A stretch of DNA of 64,000 nucleotides from a virus. Numbering within the stretch: position 1 is the stretch's first letter; the number at the start of each line of letters is the position of its first letter. The notes under the pieces are model-generated. The model searched no databases, was not told the DNA's origin, and was given only the letters and a program-made list of their open reading frames with translations. Positions 12,114-20,461 of the stretch are shown in pieces. The stretch lies in IMG/VR virus record IMGVR_UViG_3300034062_004313, positions 91,875-155,874 of that record; one strand, 5' to 3'. Both the position numbers and the translations under genes were made by a program.

Positions 12114-13259
12114 ATGGCTTGTAGTCCTTATAATCCTTGTCACACACCAACTTGTGACACATGTAATACAGTAAATCCTTGTTATGACAATTGTGGTTGT
12201 TTAAATCCAACTACATTTGATTGTATAACAAATTTCAAAAAAGCATATAACAATATCCCTTTAGAAATAAATGCTACAGGGCAAGATATGCTTGATAATC
12301 TTGATGAAACAGTAGCTGAAATAGAAAGTAATCTATATAAAGTAAAGGTGGATGATAGTGATACTTGTCCTGATACACTCTTAGATAAGATTACAGCAGG
12401 TAGCAATATTACAGTATCTGTAGCAGGAAGTGGATGTAATAGAAAACTTACTATAACAGCAGGGAATGGTATAACAACTGCTCCTGATATATATGCTAAA
12501 GTTTCATCTAATGACACTACATCTGATTATCTTGGTAATAAATTTGTAGATGGTACATATGTTAAGAAATCTGTAAATAGTCCCGGTGGAAATGAAACAA
12601 TTGATTTTGACATTACAATAGCTGATTTAATCTCTACTGATAGTGGAAACCAATTAGGACAAGGAGTAGATGGTAAATTAAAAACTTTGTTCTCTGCACC
12701 TGATGGTTCTGAAACTAAAATTAACCCTGTTGCAAATTCTGGAATTACCCTAACTGGTACAGGTACTAATGGTGACCCTTATCTTATAGGAACTAATGGA
12801 GCATTATTTGCTGTTCAACCATATACAGATGGTGTATGGAGAACATTAACCTTTAACAATGGTAGCAATGCTAATGTGACACTTAATTCTCAATCTGTTA
12901 AATATCGTATGAGATACGATGGTTCTGTAGAGTTTAAAGGAAGCTTAAATTATAGTGTAACATTCAATGTAGCAAGTACTAATAAGATAGCTATAACAGC
13001 AGCTAACATCACTACAGGAGGCTCAACAAACCTTCCTTCAACAGCCTTTGATAGGGTTGCTAATCTAAGACATTATATGACGTTCAGTAGCCCTAATACA
13101 ATAAGTGCTACACCAAAATTAACAGGTTATAATGTAAACATATTAGCTGCTGCTTTAAATAGTCCAGCACCAATTCAAATAGAATTTATGAATGACACTG
13201 CTGAAACTAAAAATATAGTAGTAACAATGGATGGAGCAATATATCATCCTAATATTTAA
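12114..13259 (+). CDS. Fibre-like virion protein
   Basis: Cys-rich N-terminus, repeated KVxxxDTxxDxLxxK units, G/T/N-rich. Confidence 0.55.
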   Translation: MACSPYNPCHTPTCDTCNTVNPCYDNCGCLNPTTFDCITNFKKAYNNIPLEINATGQDMLDNLDETVAEIESNLYKVKVDDSDTCPDTLLDKITAGSNITVSVAGSGCNRKLTITAGNGITTAPDIYAKVSSNDTTSDYLGNKFVDGTYVKKSVNSPGGNETIDFDITIADLISTDSGNQLGQGVDGKLKTLFSAPDGSETKINPVANSGITLTGTGTNGDPYLIGTNGALFAVQPYTDGVWRTLTFNNGSNANVTLNSQSVKYRMRYDGSVEFKGSLNYSVTFNVASTNKIAITAANITTGGSTNLPSTAFDRVANLRHYMTFSSPNTISATPKLTGYNVNILAAALNSPAPIQIEFMNDTAETKNIVVTMDGAIYHPNI

Positions 13260-13309
13260 GAATTTAGAAAGAACGTAGCTTTTTTTGGTTTTTGCTGCAT
13301 ATGTTTTTC

Positions 13310-13338
13310 GGAGCCGTTCTCGGCTCTTTTTTCTTTTT
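13310..13338 (+). terminator. Intrinsic terminator ending the capsid module
   Basis: gagccg-ttct-cggctc followed by tttttt. Confidence 0.85.
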
Positions 13339-13367
13339 ATTAACATTTTAAATTGTAATTTTGTATT

Positions 13368-13622
13368 ATGATAATAACAGATAACATATTCTATTTAGAT
13401 AATGGAGTAGAAAGACAAATAAATGTATTTAACGAAAGTGACCCACACTATAGATGTTTTGAATCAGATGGACAGAAACAAATAATCTTTGGAAGAAGTT
13501 CATTTGTAAAAACTGAAAATGGAGAAGTAGATTTCTTCTCTTTAAGCAAAGAAGAAAAAGATAAATTCTGTAATAACACTAATTTTATAAAAACTTATAA
13601 AAAATATGATATACATAGGTAA
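13368..13622 (+). CDS. Hypothetical protein
   Basis: 84 aa ORF just after a TAatTTTG box. Confidence 0.55.
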   Translation: MIITDNIFYLDNGVERQINVFNESDPHYRCFESDGQKQIIFGRSSFVKTENGEVDFFSLSKEEKDKFCNNTNFIKTYKKYDIHR

Positions 13623-13669
13623 AGAATTAAGATGTTGGAAACACGTTAACAATGAATTAACACAACATA

Positions 13670-13701
13670 TTTGATTATATAAAATTATTACACTATATTA
13701 C
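13670..13701 (+). promoter_or_regulatory. Putative promoter of tRNA operon 1
   Basis: TTTG-N20-TATATTAC. Confidence 0.5.
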
Positions 13702-13710
13702 AATATAATT

Positions 13711-13791
13711 ATGAAATACGTAGTAACACATACAACATGTCCACAGTGGTTTACACCGACAATATCGGGAGGGGCTTTGTATGTATACTAA
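13711..13791 (+). CDS. Attenuator leader peptide 1, MKYVVTHTTCPQWFTPTISGGALYVY
   Basis: 12-codon run containing only T/H/C/P/Q/W/F, matching the downstream tRNAs; overlaps the antiterminator strand. Confidence 0.9.
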   Translation: MKYVVTHTTCPQWFTPTISGGALYVY

Positions 13792-13813
13792 GAAATAGCT
13801 GTGTAGTAACATC

Positions 13814-13845
13814 AACCCTCTGAGAAATCGGAGGGTTTTTTATTT
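13814..13845 (+). terminator. Attenuator terminator 1
   Basis: aaccctctga-gaaa-tcggagggtt followed by tttt, directly before tRNA-Pro. Confidence 0.9.
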
Positions 13846-13939
13846 CTAGTTGTGGACGAGAGGTTTATGTCATTAGTCTTGGAAACTAATATCTGCACAC
13901 AGATGGTGTGGGTCAAGGGTTCGACTCCCTTCAACTAGA
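13846..13939 (+). tRNA. tRNA-Pro(UGG) with long variable arm
   Basis: Acceptor ctagttg/caactag; anticodon arm ttagt-ctTGGaa-actaa; T arm aaggg-ttcgact-ccctt. Confidence 0.85.
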
Positions 13940-13949
13940 CTTTTAATTT

Positions 13950-14022
13950 GCCTTACGAAGCTTTTATGGATGAAGTGTACTCTTGTAAAGTACGGAACTG
14001 GACTCGATTTCCAGCTAAGGCT
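13950..14022 (+). tRNA. tRNA-Thr(UGU)
   Basis: gtact-ctTGTaa-agtac; acceptor gcctta/taaggc. Confidence 0.85.
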
Positions 14023-14028
14023 CAAATT

Positions 14029-14101
14029 GGAGAAGAAGCTAACTTGGTAGAAGCGTTAGACTGAAAATCTAAAGGAGTTGGTCCGAAACCAACCTTCTCC
14101 G
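14029..14101 (+). tRNA. tRNA-Phe(GAA)
   Basis: ggagaag/cttctcc; ttaga-ctGAAaa-tctaa. Confidence 0.9.
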
Positions 14102-14103
14102 CT

Positions 14104-14178
14104 AAATACTTAATGAAACAATAAAGGAACAAAGGGGTCCGGGTAGAAATACGTTAGCGCCCATTGATTTAAGTATTT
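14104..14178 (+). ncRNA. Unidentified structured element inside the tRNA operon
   Basis: 10-bp closing stem aaatacttaa/ttaagtattt; inner caat/attg and gggt/gccc. Confidence 0.4.
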
Positions 14179-14183
14179 TTTAT

Positions 14184-14255
14184 TCCTATGTGGTGTAATG
14201 TAACATCCACGCCTTTGAAGCGTTGAGATTGGTGGTTCAAGTCCATCTATAGGAA
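14184..14255 (+). tRNA. tRNA-Gln(UUG)
   Basis: tcctatg/tatagga; acgc-ctTTGaa-gcgt. Confidence 0.85.
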
Positions 14256-14257
14256 CT

Positions 14258-14332
14258 GTCTAAGTGTTCTGACTGGATTCAGATGAATGACTGTGAATTA
14301 TTCAAAAAGGGTTCGAATCCCACTTAGACCCA
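14258..14332 (+). tRNA. tRNA-His(GUG)
   Basis: gtctaag/cttagac plus CCA; gaatga-ctGTGaa-ttattc; short T stem. Confidence 0.8.
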
Positions 14333-14336
14333 ATAT

Positions 14337-14409
14337 ATAGGTACTCATGGCTGGCGTGATAAACAATCTCCAAAATTGTGATTTGTTGAATCGTTCTCAA
14401 CTACCTATG
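14337..14409 (+). tRNA. tRNA-Trp(CCA)
   Basis: ataggta/tacctat, G73; acaat-ctCCAaa-attgt; divergent T loop. Confidence 0.8.
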
Positions 14410-14465
14410 CTTTATAGGTCTATATACCTATATTTATAGATTATAGGTTTTAAAGGCTATAATTT

Positions 14466-14541
14466 GTCCAGATACCTAATATTGATTTTGGGATAGGTCT
14501 GCAACACCTATTAAATATCGGTTTGATTCCGATTCTGGACT
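14466..14541 (+). tRNA. tRNA-Cys(GCA)
   Basis: gtccaga/tctggac, U73; taggt-ctGCAac-accta. Confidence 0.85.
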
Positions 14542-14555
14542 CTATTAAAAATAAA

Positions 14556-14587
14556 TTTTTTTATTTGAAAAAGATTTCGTATATTTG
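14556..14587 (+). promoter_or_regulatory. Bacteroidota-type promoter of tRNA operon 2
   Basis: -7 box TAtaTTTG at 14580-14587. Confidence 0.7.
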
Positions 14588-14612
14588 CTGTATAAATAAT
14601 AAACATTCAACA

Positions 14613-14693
14613 ATGCAACTTATAAATATGATAGTGGATAACGGTATTGGAGCAAACGAGAAGTTTGGCTTCAGGTATTCTATTGTCGTATAA
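14613..14693 (+). CDS. Attenuator leader peptide 2, MQLINMIVDNGIGANEKFGFRYSIVV
   Basis: 14-codon run containing only I/N/M/V/D/G/A/E/K, matching the downstream tRNAs. Confidence 0.9.
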   Translation: MQLINMIVDNGIGANEKFGFRYSIVV

Positions 14694-14714
14694 TTACTTA
14701 CTAACCCGATAAAG

Positions 14715-14745
14715 AATCCTGAGGCCCATCGCTTCGGGATTTTTT
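14715..14745 (+). terminator. Attenuator terminator 2
   Basis: aatcctgaggc-ccatc-gcttcgggatt followed by tttt, before tRNA-Lys. Confidence 0.9.
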
Positions 14746-14749
14746 GTTT

Positions 14750-14824
14750 AATCTCGTAGCAAAATGTGGCTTTGCTTCAGCCTTTTAAGCTGACTAAAAA
14801 TGGGTTCGACTCCCATCGGGATTA
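14750..14824 (+). tRNA. tRNA-Lys(UUU)
   Basis: tcagc-ctTTTaa-gctga; atggg-ttcgact-cccat. Confidence 0.9.
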
Positions 14825-14830
14825 CTAAAT

Positions 14831-14903
14831 GGCTCTTTAGCTCAGTGGTAGAGCTTCGTTTTTACATGACGAGAAAGCACTTGTCCGATTCAAGTAAGAG
14901 CTA
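14831..14903 (+). tRNA. tRNA-Val(UAC)
   Basis: ggctctt/aagagct; tcgtt-ttTACat-gacga. Confidence 0.85.
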
Positions 14904-14904
14904 C

Positions 14905-15234
14905 ATGAAATATATATTAGGAATACTGTTCTTATTAATTATAGGAACAGCAACAAAAACAGGAATTGCAAGTTATTATCATAACAAGTTTCAAGGAAGG
15001 AAAACTGCTAGTGGTGAATTATATGATAAACATAAATTAACAGCAGCTTCTAATCAATATAAACTTGGTGATAGTGTAAGAGTAACAAATACTAAGAATG
15101 GTAAAAGTGTAAATGTTACAGTAAATGACCGTATGGCTAATAATGGAAGACTAATTGATTTAAGTAGAAGTGCTGCTGATAGTCTTGGTTTTATTAAGGA
15201 TGGTTTAGTTGTAGTTAAAGTTAGTATATTATAA
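14905..15234 (+). CDS. rlpA: RlpA-like DPBB lytic transglycosylase with N-terminal signal/TM segment
   Basis: GIASYY...GRKTASGE.YD...LTAA...VRVTN..NGKSV.V.VNDR...IDLSRSAA motif set; start moved downstream of tRNA-Val. Confidence 0.85.
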   Translation: MKYILGILFLLIIGTATKTGIASYYHNKFQGRKTASGELYDKHKLTAASNQYKLGDSVRVTNTKNGKSVNVTVNDRMANNGRLIDLSRSAADSLGFIKDGLVVVKVSIL

Positions 15235-15239
15235 ATATC

Positions 15240-15313
15240 TGTTTTGTAGCTCAGTGGCCTAGAGCGTGAAGCTGTTAACTTCAGGGTCGTGGGTTCGAAT
15301 CCCATCAGGACAG
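15240..15313 (+). tRNA. tRNA-Asn(GUU)
   Basis: tgaag-ctGTTaa-cttca; G73. Confidence 0.92.
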
Positions 15314-15318
15314 CATAT

Positions 15319-15403
15319 TGTGGGATGGTGTAATTGGTAACACGCAAGGCTCATAACCTTGAGACAGAAAATGCTAGCAAGGGTTCGAATCCCTTTCCCG
15401 CAA
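15319..15403 (+). tRNA. tRNA-Met(CAU), initiator-like body, extended variable loop
   Basis: tgtggga/tcccgca; caagg-ctCATaa-ccttg. Confidence 0.85.
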
Positions 15404-15408
15404 CACAA

Positions 15409-15481
15409 GCAGTATAGGCAGATTGGCTTATGCACCTCACTTCCAATGAGGACATGGTGGGTTCGATTCCTACATGCTGCA
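15409..15481 (+). tRNA. tRNA-Gly(UCC)
   Basis: gcagtat/atgctgc; cctca-ctTCCaa-tgagg. Confidence 0.9.
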
Positions 15482-15528
15482 CAAAAATTATATTATGAAA
15501 AATTCTTTAAAAGAAGGTGAAGAGATAT

Positions 15529-15601
15529 ACTCTCATCTTCTAGTTGGTCAGGATAACACACTTTCAATGTGTTGACACGGGTTCAAGCCCCGTTGGGAGT
15601 G
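15529..15601 (+). tRNA. tRNA-Glu(UUC)
   Basis: actctca/tgggagt; acaca-ctTTCaa-tgtgt. Confidence 0.9.
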
Positions 15602-15611
15602 CTTTAAAAAT

Positions 15612-15685
15612 GGTAGATGGGTCTGCTGGATGAAGATGTCGGTCTGTCGAACCGAAGATGATGGGTTTGAATCCCATATCTACCG
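15612..15685 (+). tRNA. tRNA-Asp(GUC)
   Basis: ggtagat/atctacc, G73; tcggt-ctGTCga-accga. Confidence 0.9.
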
Positions 15686-15690
15686 CATTA

Positions 15691-15765
15691 GGACTTGTAG
15701 CCAAGTTGGTAAAGGCCCTTGACTCATAATCAAGAGATGCAATGGTTCGAGACCATTCAAGTCCA
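15691..15765 (+). tRNA. tRNA(CAU), probably Ile2 (lysidine); elongator Met possible
   Basis: ggacttg/caagtcc; cttga-ctCATaa-tcaag; leader 2 contains two ATA codons. Confidence 0.8.
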
Positions 15766-15770
15766 CATAT

Positions 15771-15842
15771 AGGAATATAGTAGAAGGGTTATCACAATTG
15801 ACTGATACTCAATTAATATAGGTTCGAATCCTATTGTTCCTA
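15771..15842 (+). tRNA. tRNA-Ile(GAU)
   Basis: aggaata/tgttcct; attga-ctGATac-tcaat. Confidence 0.88.
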
Positions 15843-15847
15843 CATTT

Positions 15848-15920
15848 GGGGATAAAGCTCTAGCGGATGAGCATCTGCCTTGCACGTAGAAGGTTACGAT
15901 TTCGAGTGTCGTTATCTCCA
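15848..15920 (+). tRNA. tRNA-Ala(UGC)
   Basis: G3.U70 identity pair; tctgc-ctTGCac-gtaga. Confidence 0.9.
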
Positions 15921-15942
15921 CATAGGGGTTCGGAAAATAATT

Positions 15943-15980
15943 AGCTACATCTCTTTATTAATAAGGGTTGTAGCTTTTTT
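15943..15980 (+). terminator. Terminator ending tRNA operon 2
   Basis: agctaca...tgtagct followed by a U tract. Confidence 0.7.
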
Positions 15981-16056
15981 ATTGTCTCAAATATTGTAAT
16001 AATTTGCGACATAATTTATTTTTTGTCAGGTTATAACCTTTCTTTATCTTTGTTTT

Positions 16057-16224
16057 ATGAATTGGCATATACTACCTGTAAATGATATAGAATATCATGA
16101 AGAATCTACCACTTGTAAGTGTGAACCACAAGTAGAATTTATAGAAGGAGATATGCTAATTATACAAAACTCTTTTGATGGTAGAGAAGGAGTTGAATGG
16201 GTAAATGAAATTTTAAATAAATAA
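16057..16224 (+). CDS. Small acidic protein, 55 aa (MNWHILPVNDIEYHEESTTCKCEP...DGRE), absent from the ORF track
   Basis: Has its own promoter TTTG-N19-TAtcTTTG; His/Cys pattern suggests metal binding. Confidence 0.7.
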   Translation: MNWHILPVNDIEYHEESTTCKCEPQVEFIEGDMLIIQNSFDGREGVEWVNEILNK

Positions 16225-16256
16225 TTTGGAAAATTCAAAATAATTTCGTATATTTG
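16225..16256 (+). promoter_or_regulatory. Consensus Bacteroidota promoter of tRNA operon 3
   Basis: TTTG-N20-TAtaTTTG. Confidence 0.85.
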
Positions 16257-16260
16257 CTTT

Positions 16261-16329
16261 ATGAAAACATTATCACTATATAGTTCCTCAAGTTATCTCT
16301 TATTAAGAGACAGGGATTGTATTGTGTAA
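16261..16329 (+). CDS. Attenuator leader peptide 3, MKTLSLYSSSSYLLLRDRDCIV
   Basis: 12-codon run containing only L/S/Y, matching the downstream tRNAs. Confidence 0.9.
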   Translation: MKTLSLYSSSSYLLLRDRDCIV

Positions 16330-16357
16330 ATAGCTATAAGCTTTTAGCTCCCCTAAC

Positions 16358-16389
16358 AATCCCTTGTCTTTCCAGATGAGGGATTTTTT
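16358..16389 (+). terminator. Attenuator terminator 3
   Basis: aatcccttgtct-ttcc-agatgagggatt followed by tttt. Confidence 0.9.
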
Positions 16390-16392
16390 ATT

Positions 16393-16465
16393 GGCTCTAT
16401 GACGTAATCGGCAACCGTCTTGGCTTTAGACCCCAAGTTTTCCAGTTCGAATCTGGATAGAGCTA
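16393..16465 (+). tRNA. tRNA-Leu(UAG)-like, lacking the long variable arm
   Basis: ggctcta/tagagct; ttggc-ttTAGac-cccaa; tccag-ttcgaat-ctgga. Confidence 0.7.
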
Positions 16466-16520
16466 CAAATTAGCAGCCCTCTATGGATAATTCTATTGAC
16501 GAATAGAATATGGGCAAAAT

Positions 16521-16603
16521 ATTCCTGTGGTGAAATGGTGAGACACGGCAGACTTAAAATCTGCTACGGAGAAACGTTGCTGGTTCGAATCCAGTCAGGA
16601 ATA
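16521..16603 (+). tRNA. tRNA-Leu(UAA)
   Basis: gcaga-ctTAAaa-tctgc; long variable arm. Confidence 0.92.
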
Positions 16604-16606
16604 CTT

Positions 16607-16691
16607 AGCAGAATGTCAGAGTGGTTTATTGTGATAGTCTTGAAAACTATTGGGTGTAAAAGCTCCTTGGGTTCGAATCCCAATTTTGCTG
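16607..16691 (+). tRNA. tRNA-Ser(UGA)
   Basis: atagt-ctTGAaa-actat; G73; long variable arm. Confidence 0.92.
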
Positions 16692-16695
16692 CAAT

Positions 16696-16784
16696 AGAAG
16701 ATTGTGTGAGTGGCTTAAACAACCAGTTTGCTAAACTGGCGAGGGATTAAAACACCTCCATTGGTTCAAATCCAATATCTTCTG
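16696..16784 (+). tRNA. tRNA-Ser(GCU)
   Basis: ccagt-ttGCTaa-actgg; G73; long variable arm. Confidence 0.92.
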
Positions 16785-16789
16785 CATAT

Positions 16790-16882
16790 TGTGTTGTAAC
16801 GGCAGTAGACTGTAAATCTACTCTGCATAACAAATTGTCGTACTGGTCTCGCAGTAAGAAGGTTCGAATCCTTTCAACACAA
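16790..16882 (+). tRNA. tRNA-Tyr(GUA), D-armless with oversized variable region
   Basis: tgtgttg/caacaca; gtaga-ctGTAaa-tctac; gaagg-ttcgaat-ccttt. Confidence 0.75.
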
Positions 16883-16908
16883 CATTAACTTATTATTAAC
16901 TATAGACA

Positions 16909-17082
16909 TTTGACTATATAAAGTAAATAGTCTATTTTTGTATTGTACAAATTCCCAACCGTCATAGGAGATTTGTATTTAATTAACAATAACTATATAT
17001 TCGATTGATGTAACTTTGTTCTTAGGAACGCAACTTGACGGTTGGGACCCCTTGTACTTAATTGTATGAGGGGATTTTTTTT
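16909..17082 (+). promoter_or_regulatory. Promoter plus structured leader or small RNA ending in a terminator
   Basis: TTTG-N20-TAttTTTG; perfect 12-bp inverted repeat tcccaaccgtca/tgacggttggga; terminator ccccttgtac/gtatgagggg plus U tract. Confidence 0.65.
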
Positions 17083-17084
17083 GC

Positions 17085-17415
17085 AGACATCCGAGGTTTT
17101 TCTTTCCTTCTTTTACGTCCTCCACAAAAATAAAAGAGTGTCATTAAGATAGTATAGTATATTACACTTGGTATATTATATGATAGGATGTAGAAAAATC
17201 AGCAATGTCTAAGGTGACAACTGGACCTGAACGAAATTATCAGCAAAAACTACATTCCTCCGTGAAAAATAAAATCATCTTATAGCTGATAATTATTTGT
17301 AGATGATTGGCAGGACATGGGAATCTTAGGTTGACAATATGTTTATAGGAGTATGTGTTAACTATAAATACATTATCCCAACAGGGGAAGACCTTGTTCA
17401 GGATAGACCCCCTTA
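17085..17415. ncRNA. Candidate structured non-coding RNA
   Basis: No credible ORF; several long-range helices. Confidence 0.4.
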
Positions 17416-17442
17416 TGTAAATTAACAATAAAATGTAAAACT

Positions 17443-17748
17443 ATGAAAAACCACAAAATGACATCATATCAATTCATGATGTTAATGCAAGAATTACCAA
17501 ATCCAATGTATTATGCTAGAAATGGAGCTAATGTAGGATTTAGAGTAAAAGTAGGATATTTAAAGAAGTCCATTGATAATACTCCTACAATATTAATAAA
17601 TCCTAATTCTCAACCTATGAAGATGGCAGAAGTTGAACAGGTAGAATTTGAATTAGTTCCGAACAATACTATTTGGTATTGGCAACCTGTAGAACCAATT
17701 ACTATAATAACATTAGATAAGAAAGAGTACATTAAAAATTGGGAATAA
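17443..17748 (+). CDS. Hypothetical protein
   Basis: ORF on the coding strand. Confidence 0.6.
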   Translation: MKNHKMTSYQFMMLMQELPNPMYYARNGANVGFRVKVGYLKKSIDNTPTILINPNSQPMKMAEVEQVEFELVPNNTIWYWQPVEPITIITLDKKEYIKNWE

Positions 17749-18056
17749 TGAATATAATAAAATGGTATAAAAGAGTATTTAGAATTCTTACTATAGAAGA
17801 ATGTAAAGAATTAGGATTAGTACATTCTCATAATATATATGGTGATAGTATTAATCATTTAAATTGTAGAAGTATTTGGAAAGATGAAAAGGATAGAACA
17901 TATAGGTGTGAAAGTTTAATACCTACTATAGGAGTACTAGATTTATGGATTTTAAAAATGAAAAATCAAGATAAAGTACAACCAATAACTCAAGAAGAAT
18001 ATAATAAAATAAGAGATGAAGAATTTGAAAGGCTCAAGACTTTATATTCGCCTTAA
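17739..18056 (+). CDS. Hypothetical protein
   Basis: ORF overlapping the upstream stop; start may be 17748. Confidence 0.6.
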   Translation: MGIMNIIKWYKRVFRILTIEECKELGLVHSHNIYGDSINHLNCRSIWKDEKDRTYRCESLIPTIGVLDLWILKMKNQDKVQPITQEEYNKIRDEEFERLKTLYSP

Positions 18057-18093
18057 CAAATAATAGTGTAATTTTGGCTTCTAAATAAAAATC

Positions 18094-18414
18094 ATGAAAG
18101 TATTAACAGAAGGACATTATTATGAACTAGAACATTTTGAAAAAGATGAATCGGGTAGTTCAGAAAGTTTACAATTTATCGAAAAGGTTCCAAAAGGTGA
18201 AGGGAAAGTACAAGATTTAGTAACAGTAAATAATGGAACTACAAATGAAGAAGTTCTTAAAGTTCTAATAAATAGAATGAACTATTTACAAGCAAAATTT
18301 CCATGTAGAGAAAATGCTATTGTAATTACAAAACTTGAAGAAAGTCTAATGTGGTTAGAAAAAAGAACTGTTGATAGAATAGCTAGAAATGTAGAAGGTA
18401 AACAATTAAAATAA
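18094..18414 (+). CDS. tad1: Tad1/Acb2-family anti-defence nucleotide-sponge protein
   Basis: G...E.VL.VLI.RM..LQ..FPCRENA..ITKLEESLMWL.KRT.DRI.RNV.G matches the Tad1 helical-hairpin pattern. Confidence 0.75.
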   Translation: MKVLTEGHYYELEHFEKDESGSSESLQFIEKVPKGEGKVQDLVTVNNGTTNEEVLKVLINRMNYLQAKFPCRENAIVITKLEESLMWLEKRTVDRIARNVEGKQLK

Positions 18415-18422
18415 AATAAACT

Positions 18423-18638
18423 ATGAAAAAACAATTATTTACGTATGCTGTATTATTCCATCAGCATGAAGAGAAAGAGGGAAAATTGGAATACAAAGAA
18501 ACACTTATTCTTGTAGAACCAAAAGTGATTTTAGCAAAGAATAGTAATGAAGTAGCATTCAAAGCTACAAGAGACGTACCAGAACAATATGCAGGATTTT
18601 CAGAAAATGTAGAAATTATAGTACGCCCTTTTAAATAG
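18423..18638 (+). CDS. Small phage protein ending in VRPFK
   Basis: 71 aa ORF. Confidence 0.7.
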   Translation: MKKQLFTYAVLFHQHEEKEGKLEYKETLILVEPKVILAKNSNEVAFKATRDVPEQYAGFSENVEIIVRPFK

Positions 18639-18648
18639 CTCCCCCTTA

Positions 18649-18828
18649 ATGTGGGATAGTGGGAGCAAAGGAGTATGGGAACAATTAGTAGACCCACCTA
18701 AATATAAAAGTACTTTCCAAAATTATATGGGTACAACTACAAATTTAGTAGGACAAGCAATAAACACTTTGACAACAGGAACATCAATATCATATAACAT
18801 GGCAGATGCAATGTCATTCACAAATTAA
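18649..18828 (+). CDS. 59 aa T/S/N-rich ORF, or frameshift extension of the upstream gene
   Basis: The +1 frame is open across the upstream stop. Confidence 0.45.
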   Translation: MWDSGSKGVWEQLVDPPKYKSTFQNYMGTTTNLVGQAINTLTTGTSISYNMADAMSFTN

Positions 18829-18837
18829 AATCAAATT

Positions 18838-19002
18838 ATGAAAACACTAACAAATCTATTTACAAGCAACCCATCTTACATGAAATGGGGTAATGAAAGA
18901 ATTGCAAAAAGAACAGGGCTGAAACCAAAAACAGTAGAGAAATTCAAAAAGAATCCCTTGTATAAGATAATGAAAACCCAATATCTTAACGAGATTAATT
19001 AG
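18838..19002 (+). CDS. Small basic HTH-like protein, 54 aa, absent from the ORF track
   Basis: GNERIAKRTGLKPKTVEKF resembles a helix-turn-helix. Confidence 0.6.
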   Translation: MKTLTNLFTSNPSYMKWGNERIAKRTGLKPKTVEKFKKNPLYKIMKTQYLNEIN

Positions 19003-19012
19003 GAAATGTCGC

Positions 19013-19048
19013 AAAAAAGGCGTATATTGTTATGATATGCGCTTTTTT
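19013..19048 (+). terminator. Terminator overlapping a putative promoter
   Basis: gcgtatat/atatgcgc stem flanked by A6 and T6. Confidence 0.65.
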
Positions 19049-19052
19049 ATTT

Positions 19053-19124
19053 GGCTCCTTAGTTAAATGGATATAACCGCAGAATTCTAATCTGCATTTG
19101 GGAGTTCGATTCTCTCAGGGGCTA
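19053..19124 (+). tRNA. tRNA-Arg(UCU)
   Basis: ggctcct/aggggct; gcaga-atTCTaa-tctgc. Confidence 0.9.
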
Positions 19125-19144
19125 CGAAATCTTAAAAATAAATT

Positions 19145-20461
19145 ATGATTATAACACAAACAATGCAAAAGTTTATTGACAATCCGAAGATGTTAGAGAG
19201 TGGATATTGCTCAAAAGCAAAATTAGCTCAAAGACTTGGAACAACAATAGACGATATTACAGAATCAAGGTTTAAAGTGAAACAAATGATGTCTTCATTA
19301 GACCATGCTCAAGAGTTCTTTAAAGAATTAAAATCAGAAATTGTTAATGAACATACTACAAGAGTAGATAATGAAAAGGGTACTATAACATCGGATGTAG
19401 AAACTACATTTGAACCCAAGAATGATATTGAATTAGCTGAATTACATAAGATTGATTTAACAAAATACAAAATAAGTACATATTGGTCTAAACTAAAGAG
19501 CAATGGTAAATTCACTTCATCTGTATTAGCTACATTAAGAAATATTGATAAGGATATTCCTAAACAAAAAGAATCATTAATAGAAGAAATAGATGAATAT
19601 TTTGGTAGTAAAAAAGCTATTGAAAATTATAGATTCTTCACAAGAGAAATTGATAAGGATAGAAAAACTGCTAAAAATACAGATGGTCAACTATTAGAAA
19701 TATCCATTCCTGATTTACACATTGGTAAAATGTCTCATAGAGAAGAAACAGGGGAAGATTATGATTTAAAAATTGCATCTGCAAGATATAAGAATGCTAT
19801 AACTCAACTATTAAAAACAGCCAATTTAGATAATGTATCTGATATATTACTACCCATTGGTAATGACTTGTTCAATGTAGATAATCAGTTCTCAACTACT
19901 ACAGGTGGTACACCACAGGATTGTGATAGTAGGTTCCACAAGATGGTAGGAGCAGCAAAAGAACTCCTTATAAATACAATAACAGGGTTAAGTGCATTTG
20001 CAAGAGTACATGTTCTTATAGTACCAGGCAATCATGATGAAGTTACAACATTTATGTTAGGTGAAATATTAGAAGCATGGTTTCATAATGATAGTAACAT
20101 AACTGTAAATAATACAGCAAAACTTAGAAAATACTTCCAATTTGGAAAGAATTCTTTCCTTTATACTCATGGAGACAAAGAAAAACATGGGGATTTAGGA
20201 TTGATATTTGCTACAGAAGAACCTAGACTTTGGGCTGATACTAAATACAGATTTGTAAAACTTGGTCATCTTCACAAGCAAAAGAAAATAGAATATATAA
20301 CAACAGACACACTTCAAGGGTTCCAAATAGAAATACTTCCATCACTAAGTTCTGCTGATAAGTGGCATTATGGAAAAGGTTTCTTAGGAGCAAAGCAAGC
20401 AAAAGCCTATCTCTATGATAAAGAACTTGGGGAAATTGCACAGTATACACACACTGTTTAA
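19145..20461 (+). CDS. Calcineurin-like metallophosphoesterase with N-terminal HTH-like segment
   Basis: DLH, GND, GNHD, HGD and GHLH motifs in canonical order. Confidence 0.88.
   Translation: MIITQTMQKFIDNPKMLESGYCSKAKLAQRLGTTIDDITESRFKVKQMMSSLDHAQEFFKELKSEIVNEHTTRVDNEKGTITSDVETTFEPKNDIELAELHKIDLTKYKISTYWSKLKSNGKFTSSVLATLRNIDKDIPKQKESLIEEIDEYFGSKKAIENYRFFTREIDKDRKTAKNTDGQLLEISIPDLHIGKMSHREETGEDYDLKIASARYKNAITQLLKTANLDNVSDILLPIGNDLFNVDNQFSTTTGGTPQDCDSRFHKMVGAAKELLINTITGLSAFARVHVLIVPGNHDEVTTFMLGEILEAWFHNDSNITVNNTAKLRKYFQFGKNSFLYTHGDKEKHGDLGLIFATEEPRLWADTKYRFVKLGHLHKQKKIEYITTDTLQGFQIEILPSLSSADKWHYGKGFLGAKQAKAYLYDKELGEIAQYTHTV

Follow-up and report, generated by a model that had tools for sequence, protein, structure and literature searches.

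A likely leader-peptide attenuator in front of a ten-tRNA operon in a phage genome

Control of tRNA genes in bacteria and phages is usually placed at their promoters and in processing. The locus described here, a short open reading frame and a terminator-like hairpin directly in front of ten phage tRNA genes, raises the question of whether such genes can also be placed behind a translated switch, and of what that switch would sense. Our answer is that the locus is probably a ribosome-mediated (leader-peptide) transcription attenuator gating the ten-tRNA operon. The sequence elements, their statistics, their conservation and their covariation are shown in what follows; regulated read-through is inferred, and there are no transcript, 3′-end or ribosome data.

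The tRNA banks and the codons of the leader

The window, by which we mean the whole stretch of 64,000 nucleotides that was analysed, is the final 64 kb of a 155,874-bp IMG/VR virus record rated complete by CheckV. It carries giant ORFs of the crAss-like-phage type, and a CrAss_Ring_2 Pfam match was found in one relative. The phage's tRNA genes are all confined to positions 13846-19125, where three banks and a lone tRNA-Arg(tct) jointly cover 20/20 amino acids. Bank 1 encodes tRNAs for Pro, Thr, Phe, Gln, His, Trp and Cys; Thr and His were called by ARAGORN solely at a relaxed threshold (His having an Rfam score of 27.5 bits), and Trp needed a lower threshold still. Bank 2 runs in the order Lys(ttt), Val(tac), Asn(gtt), Met(cat), Gly(tcc), Glu(ttc), Asp(gtc), Met(cat), Ile(gat), Ala(tgc), with 10/10 tRNAs called by ARAGORN and 10/10 above the Rfam tRNA threshold. 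Bank 3 holds Leu, Leu, Ser, Ser and Tyr, the last of these taken from Rfam (34.6 bits).

The codons that precede bank 2 repeat its amino acid content. Codons 4-17 of the leader read Ile(ATA), Asn, Met, Ile(ATA), Val, Asp, Asn, Gly, Ile(ATT), Gly, Ala, Asn, Glu and Lys, and the set they form (Ile, Asn, Met, Val, Asp, Gly, Ala, Glu, Lys) is the amino acid set of the ten bank 2 tRNAs. As a null for this match we took the phage's own DNA, comprising 311,666 fourteen-codon windows in six frames over the whole 155.9-kb genome. Only 19 of the 311,666 are confined to the nine-residue set, and just one of the 311,666 also covers all nine residues, namely 14622-14663. An i.i.d. expectation from proteome frequencies comes to 1.2e-5 per fourteen-codon window, or ~2e-3 over the ~200 such windows upstream of bank 2. 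A chance origin of the codon match is excluded by the six-frame whole-genome count. Measured as the longest permitted run, the leader scores 14 against its own bank, and 1 and 2 against the other two banks.

An earlier sequence-only reading of the locus had placed control codons at 14622-14663 and stated that they cover exactly I, N, M, V, D, G, A, E and K, a claim that held, coordinates included. Its observation that both ATA and ATT occur also held, as did the match of the latter to a GAU tRNA, Ile(gat) being present in bank 2; ATA makes up 52% of the phage's Ile codons. That reading had further assigned ATA to a CAU tRNA of the Ile2 type, which remains undecided for the candidate at 15691-15766: inspection by eye of the acceptor and anticodon stems of both CAU tRNAs gave nothing decisive. 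Its remark that every amino acid of the bank has purine-starting codons is true here and fails in relatives that carry Cys in bank 2.

Several features of the banks deserve a record in their own right. Bank 2 contains nine of the ten amino acids with exclusively purine-starting codons and no others (hypergeometric ~6e-5, post hoc), a rule that breaks down in the relatives of the Leptolyngbya phage type (Lbo-type), where Cys joins the bank, and bank 3 is exactly the long-variable-arm class of tRNAs. The CAU-anticodon tRNA at 15319-15404 is 86 nt long with an 18-nt extra arm, which is unusual for Met or Ile2; a long form recurs in Lbo-JY46, L099 and L100 (84-90 nt), but the tRNA is 73-74 nt in L102 and L105. 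Aberrant tRNAs include Pro at 13846-13940 (95 nt, the anticodon arm being followed by an insert) and Tyr at 16790-16882 (a D-arm region of just ~5 nt and a 33-nt insert), to which can be added the aberrant or relaxed-threshold Thr (13950-14023), His (14258-14331) and Trp (14333-14410). Each of these five nonetheless has a codon in its own leader.

Table 1. Coordinates of the features discussed. Positions are those of the window unless a contig is named; the roles of the features in regulation are inferred.
Feature	Position	Strand	Remarks
-7 box, TATATTTG	14580-14587	+	promoter-like, Bacteroidota TAnnTTTG type; consensus match only
Leader ORF (attenuator 2)	14613-14693	+	ATG 14613; 26 codons and TAA (14691-14693)
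Control run	14622-14663	+	14 codons, exactly the nine amino acids of bank 2; sole such window in six-frame genome count
Region 1, protector arm	14626-14638	+	within control codons; MFE folds
Region 2	14667-14691	+	14667-14688 pair with terminator 5′ arm, 14679-14691 with region 1; ends at stop codon
Region 3, terminator 5′ arm	14708-14725	+
Region 4, terminator 3′ arm	14731-14748	+	includes U tract (T run from 14738)
Operon, putatively gated	14750-15921	+	tRNA Lys, Val, RlpA-like ORF, then Asn, Met (long arm), Gly, Glu, Asp, Met/Ile2?, Ile, Ala
Hairpin and T run closing operon	15943-15981	+	by eye; 7-bp stem, long loop; not listed by terminator scan
Sister attenuator 1	13711-13843	+	ORF 13711-13791; terminator 13814-13837; before Pro-Thr-Phe-Gln-His-Trp-Cys bank
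Sister attenuator 3	16249-16391	+	-7 box 16249-16256; ORF 16261-16329; terminator 16358-16385; before Leu-Leu-Ser-Ser-Tyr bank
Leader annotations and missed tRNAs of phi17:2/phi38:1	L025 3762-3881, 4098-4170, 5698-5781; L111 1701-1808, ~1868-1945

Alternative helices of the leader and their homologues

Compared with dinucleotide shuffles, the full-length leader RNA folds 5.4 standard deviations lower, into a protector hairpin (14626-14638/14679-14691) and an 18-bp terminator hairpin (14708-14748) that runs into the U tract. The latter is worth about -22 kcal/mol and ends 1-2 nt before tRNA-Lys, which starts at 14750. When the nascent RNA is truncated at the terminator loop, 14667-14688 instead pairs with the entire terminator 5′ arm to give an antiterminator fold. 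This helix (14667-14688/14708-14725) reaches -21.5 kcal/mol by RNAduplex (z -6.6), a value matched by 0/500 dinucleotide shuffles (shuffle energy -8.3 +/- 2.0) and about equal to that of the terminator, and the two helices are mutually exclusive. The leader thus has, at the level of sequence anatomy only, the layout of a classical four-region attenuator. Both the antiterminator pairing and the protector helix had been proposed in the sequence-only reading; the former held exactly as written (RNAduplex), and the latter is part of the MFE fold. Its attenuator interpretation overall is supported by the sequence-level features together with the comparative evidence.

The upstream arm of the antiterminator stops 3 nt short of the leader stop codon, so that a terminating ribosome would cover the arm and one stalled far upstream would not. 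Promoter aside, the locus fulfils every sequence-level criterion for an attenuator of the leader-peptide type, the geometric one in that region 1 lies inside the control codons and region 2 near the stop, with the caveat that the last two control codons fall within the footprint. These codons (14658-14663) are 4 nt from region 2, and a ribosome stalled on them would mask part of it. In equilibrium folds with a 29-nt ribosome mask, the antiterminator is favoured solely for an A-site near 14640-14649; for an A-site at 14622-14631, an inner hairpin allows the terminator to win on energy. It is possible that the 14 control codons are unequal in effect, and the outcome in the cell would be kinetic, so the equilibrium masks are only a sign.

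A putative promoter was assigned by consensus. TAnnTTTG is the -7 promoter consensus of Bacteroides and other Bacteroidota, and the TATATTTG box of this type sits in a 17-nt block that is repeated at 16242-16258 before leader 3 and has no other copy in the genome at <=1 mismatch. Among homologues, L101 and L105 have the box and L099 lacks it. Its role as a promoter is no more than possible, resting on the consensus match without start-site evidence. No TAnnTTTG box was found on the + strand between 14588 and 15840, a span that includes terminator to ninth tRNA, and bank 2 is therefore apparently reachable only through read-through of the terminator.

Searches of public phage genomes and viral contigs yielded no close relative. 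Using the 438-aa neighbour protein as bait gave 21 loci, 0 of them with a tRNA array; in viral contigs, the RlpA-like protein encoded between the tRNA genes gave no confirmed match, a scan for the shared promoter block gave 70 chance matches and no tRNA arrays, and a scan for the tRNA-Lys 3′ end pattern gave nothing. A scan of viral contigs for the Asp-Met junction pattern recovered one unrelated array (L097), which we used as a negative control. Metagenomic contigs with relatives of the RlpA-like protein at 62-90% identity carry the same tRNA array.

Three of these contigs (L101, L099 and L105) have the same leader with its reading frame kept. Across the four homologues, counting this phage, the A-rich 16 nt upstream of the ATG are nearly invariant, with one substitution, in L101. 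The composition of the control run is retained while its order is altered: the Gly-Ile-Gly of this phage is replaced by Ile-Gly-Gly in both L101 and L105, and in L099 a 3-nt deletion is accompanied by a downstream shift of the Ile, with the frame retained. The nine residues are covered in 4/4 leaders.

The helices are conserved with the codons. In all three contigs the antiterminator is the fold adopted by the nascent RNA (-18 to -22 kcal/mol, 0/300 shuffles as good) and the terminator is present in the full RNA, and each region 3 base has a partner in both region 2 and region 4. Two adjacent region 3 changes in L099 are matched in region 2 and in region 4, and an extra C in region 3 of L105 is answered by an extra G in each of the same two regions. 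RNAalifold finds 3/15 terminator pairs altered on both sides. Antiterminator counts from MAFFT and RNAalifold understate conservation, with L099 misaligned by one base, and per-sequence partner tables were used instead. The distance from the antiterminator arm to the stop codon is 3-12 nt in the homologues, and the arm lies just before the stop in these three contigs and in four other related leaders. The exceptions are two Lbo-type bank-2 leaders (33-34 nt), and the antiterminators of Lbo-type bank-2 leaders are weak (8-40/300 shuffles as good).

Other elements were noted in the region. The bank 2 operon encodes an RlpA-like (DPBB_1, PF03330) exported protein at 14905-15234, in an ORF that begins directly after tRNA-Val and stops 5 nt short of tRNA-Asn; its position within the array is constant in all relatives, including the Leptolyngbya phage Lbo-JY46. 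As the gene lies inside the tRNA operon, it would be expected to be expressed solely upon attenuator read-through. Bank 1 also has two hairpins between its tRNAs (14104-14183 and 14413-14467) that neither ARAGORN nor Rfam takes for tRNAs; the first is closed by a 10-bp stem and has a T run behind it. After bank 3, a long-range helix (16953-16965/17035-17047) encloses smaller hairpins and is followed by a strong terminator (17048-17073); 16953-17080 might conceivably be a small RNA, and it has no credible Rfam match. At the lone tRNA-Arg(tct) (19007-19052), a hairpin with a U tract is overlapped by a 9-codon mini-ORF with two Arg codons. This fourth, miniature attenuator before tRNA-Arg (19007) was rejected as unsupported: in L105, where 60 nt were inspected, the mini-ORF lacks an ATG, although that contig retains the hairpin together with a TATATT box.

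Leader content follows tRNA content between banks

Sister leaders precede the other two banks of this phage. The run of leader 1 (13726-13761, 12 codons) is the sole genome window confined to the seven residues of bank 1, and that of leader 3 (16270-16305) is one of two genome windows covering Leu, Ser and Tyr only, both runs being even less probable by chance than that of leader 2. Own-bank runs are 12, 14 and 12 codons long in this phage against wrong-bank runs of 1-3, and the leader-by-bank run-length matrices are strongly diagonal in five phages. The antiterminator of sister attenuator 1 is weak (53/500 shuffles as good).

Rearranged arrays show that the codons of a leader change with the tRNAs of its bank, down to the Arg isoacceptors. 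In this phage tRNA-Cys lies in bank 1, and leader 1 contains Cys. A second lineage with a homologous array, made up of the cultured Leptolyngbya phage Lbo-JY46 and contigs L102 and L103, has tRNA-Cys and tRNA-Arg(tct) in bank 2 instead, and the bank-2 leader of Lbo-JY46 and L102 is longer, with 3-6 Cys codons and 1-3 AGA codons. Conversely, Cys is gone from the Lbo-type bank-1 leader and CGT has appeared there, and bank 1 has acquired tRNA-Arg(acg). Arg codons in the leader cores agree with the Arg isoacceptor of the bank in every case, CGT in 3/3 and AGA in 4/4. The bank-1 leader of Lbo-JY46 also has Trp, and ARAGORN found an unannotated tRNA-Trp just beyond the annotated array, as this residue had led us to predict.

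The same arrangement extends to cultured Cellulophaga phages. Leader 1 of phi17:2 encodes the residues of its bank and no others (Pro, Glu, Gln, His, Leu and Arg, the last as CGT), and leader 2 contains 9/10 residues of its own bank, using AGA and including Lys. A tRNA-Lys is absent from the public record of this phage and was found by ARAGORN, as the Lys of leader 2 predicted. In phi38:1 the same layout stands before an unannotated tRNA-Ala, then Lys, Ile, Gly, Met, Asp, Thr, Val and Arg(tct); the Ala anticodon was assigned by eye, and there is no ARAGORN call there. No such leaders were seen in the unrelated phage tRNA array L097, so the method does not find them everywhere.

With regard to the public records, the leaders of phi17:2 and phi38:1 are listed as hypothetical proteins (gp077, gp066) whose annotated starts are upstream and non-ATG, and unannotated tRNAs are Lys(ttt) and Ser(tga), overlapping gp078, in phi17:2 and Ala before Lys in phi38:1. 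In one relative, L110 (5314-6330), leader 1, bank 1 and the RlpA-like gene are retained, and ARAGORN detects neither bank 2 nor bank 3. HNH/homing-endonuclease genes are inserted within the arrays of L105 (5410-5928) and Lbo-JY46 (L024 3562-4389).

Proposed mechanism, rival explanations and known systems

Leader translation, the transcription start site, regulated read-through and the natural trigger are all inferred, and the following is a model. Transcription would start near 14590, and the 26-codon leader would be translated while the RNA is being synthesised. With ample aminoacyl-tRNAs for codons 4-17, the ribosome would reach the stop at 14691 and cover region 2, region 3 would pair with region 4, and RNA polymerase would terminate on the U tract just before tRNA-Lys. 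Were any of the nine decoders scarce, the ribosome would stall within 14622-14663 and cover region 1, leaving region 2 free to capture region 3 as it emerges; the terminator would be blocked, and the ten tRNAs and the RlpA-like gene would be transcribed. Without a ribosome on the leader, regions 1 and 2 would pair and the terminator would form. Because the tRNA product would relieve the stalling signal, the device would be a negative-feedback supply controller (homeostat), one per bank.

As for the trigger, a mismatch between phage codons and the host pool is as possible as tRNA-cleaving defence nucleases. Cleavage by such nucleases had been put forward in the sequence-only reading; it is compatible with the data, and no evidence was found for it. 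Amino-acid starvation would likewise trip the switch. Some points count against a tidy model. GGT needs four-way wobble by the UCC tRNA, and GTG, GAG and AAG are also readable by host C34 tRNAs, so the sensor may not report phage tRNAs alone. Transcription-translation coupling in the presumed Bacteroidota host is an assumption.

A bolder reading, which we nevertheless favour, is that this is a closed-loop phage tRNA supply that resolves single isoacceptors. Each bank would be preceded by a translated checklist of the codons that its tRNAs serve and be transcribed only on slow decoding (host-pool mismatch, host shut-off or tRNA-cleaving defence), and the checklist would be rewritten when tRNA genes move, in a system that spans unrelated phage families including cultured Cellulophaga and Leptolyngbya phages.

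The rival that survives best, though we think it unlikely, holds that the leader is translated and relevant but does not act through an intrinsic-terminator switch. It could act through Rho loading when the leader is not translated or through a protection or processing of the tRNA precursor that depends on translation, or the terminator could be a fixed, partial one that sets dosage, with the ORF merely keeping the RNA unfolded. In its favour, equilibrium folds with a masked ribosome give no clear answer at several control codons, antiterminators are weak in some related leaders, and the terminator hairpin doubles as the 5′ leader of tRNA-Lys, which RNase P must remove. Against it, the helix between regions 2 and 3 is as strong as the terminator and far beyond shuffles, and is kept together with the 3:4 helix by compensatory change; moreover, the position of the upstream arm, ending just before the stop in L101, L099, L105 and four related leaders, is explained only by a switch.

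A T-box-like device, in which anticodons would pair with the displayed codons without a ribosome and stabilise the antiterminator, is very unlikely. Cognate codons do adjoin a terminator/antiterminator pair, as in T-box leaders. However, the triplets belong to a reading frame opened by an ATG and closed by a stop codon, and this frame survives a 3-nt indel and codon permutations. An Rfam scan of 13000-19500 with E up to 1 returned only tRNA and chance-level matches and no T-box, and we know of no precedent for nine successive specifiers without a specifier loop or T-box sequence.

Equally improbable is a functional micro-protein, or a chance ORF with an ordinary terminator, that matches the tRNA set by coincidence or composition bias: AT-rich DNA does favour Ile, Asn and Lys codons, small ORFs are plentiful in the region and two related leaders are annotated as hypothetical proteins, but the six-frame genome test already includes composition and yields one window, the three leaders here and leaders in four other phage lineages match their own banks, and it is composition and not peptide sequence that is conserved, with tails differing wherever the terminator arm differs.

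If the attenuator model is right, a leader that checks how each codon is decoded and then lets the corresponding tRNAs be made would represent a new logic of tRNA expression, and would account for the division of phage tRNA arrays into fixed banks. It would also offer a handle on the role of phage tRNAs, in codon supply or in escape from tRNA-targeting defence; phage tRNA arrays have been discussed as counter-defence (PMC11555353). On the practical side, leaders predict the tRNA content of banks, and two tRNA genes missing from public records were correctly predicted, while the leaders themselves are now annotated as hypothetical proteins or left unannotated. The presence of the design in cultured phage-host pairs makes it testable at the bench, and an infection time-course RNA-seq of phi38:1 in two hosts has been published (PMC5335546).

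We found no description of leader-peptide control of tRNA genes in the full-text literature searched, and the phi38:1 transcriptome paper (PMC5335546) does not mention such leader attenuation. The novelty appears to lie in a known switch applied to tRNA genes, with a checklist of many amino acids, in phages. New here are the homologues with three-way compensatory changes, the covariation upon relocation down to Arg isoacceptors, and the occurrence of the design in three cultured phages.

Known systems share parts of this design. Like the tRNA clusters of T4 and T5, these are phage-encoded tRNA arrays processed from long precursors; clusters of that type are, to our knowledge, not known to be gated by a leader peptide. 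As in T-box leaders, tRNA status would be reported by a terminator/antiterminator choice upstream of translation-related genes; T-boxes, however, bind uncharged tRNA directly and without an ORF, whereas the phage triplets lie in an ATG-to-stop frame. A further system is the uORFC-8-2 motif before cysS, a leader-peptide attenuator of a synthetase gene (PMC8632094). The pheM leader before pheST in E. coli is another attenuator of this kind. In these cases too, a gene of the translation apparatus is switched on by stalling at a cognate codon, with feedback on charged tRNA, but they control a protein and sense one amino acid, whereas the product of the phage leader would be tRNA and a whole set would be sensed. 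Among biosynthetic operons, thrL senses Thr and Ile, and the ilvGMEDA and ilvBN leaders sense Ile, Leu and Val. The phage locus resembles these thr and ilv attenuators in having a short leader, translated in our model, with codons for more than one amino acid, alternative 1:2, 2:3 and 3:4 helices, an intrinsic terminator before the first gene, and read-through as the predicted outcome of stalling. It differs from them in that the genes under putative control are tRNA genes and not biosynthetic enzymes, in that nine amino acids are sampled 1-3x each where thr and ilv leaders have long runs of one to three kinds, and in that the leaders are phage-borne, come in sets with one per bank, and track isoacceptors (CGT vs AGA).
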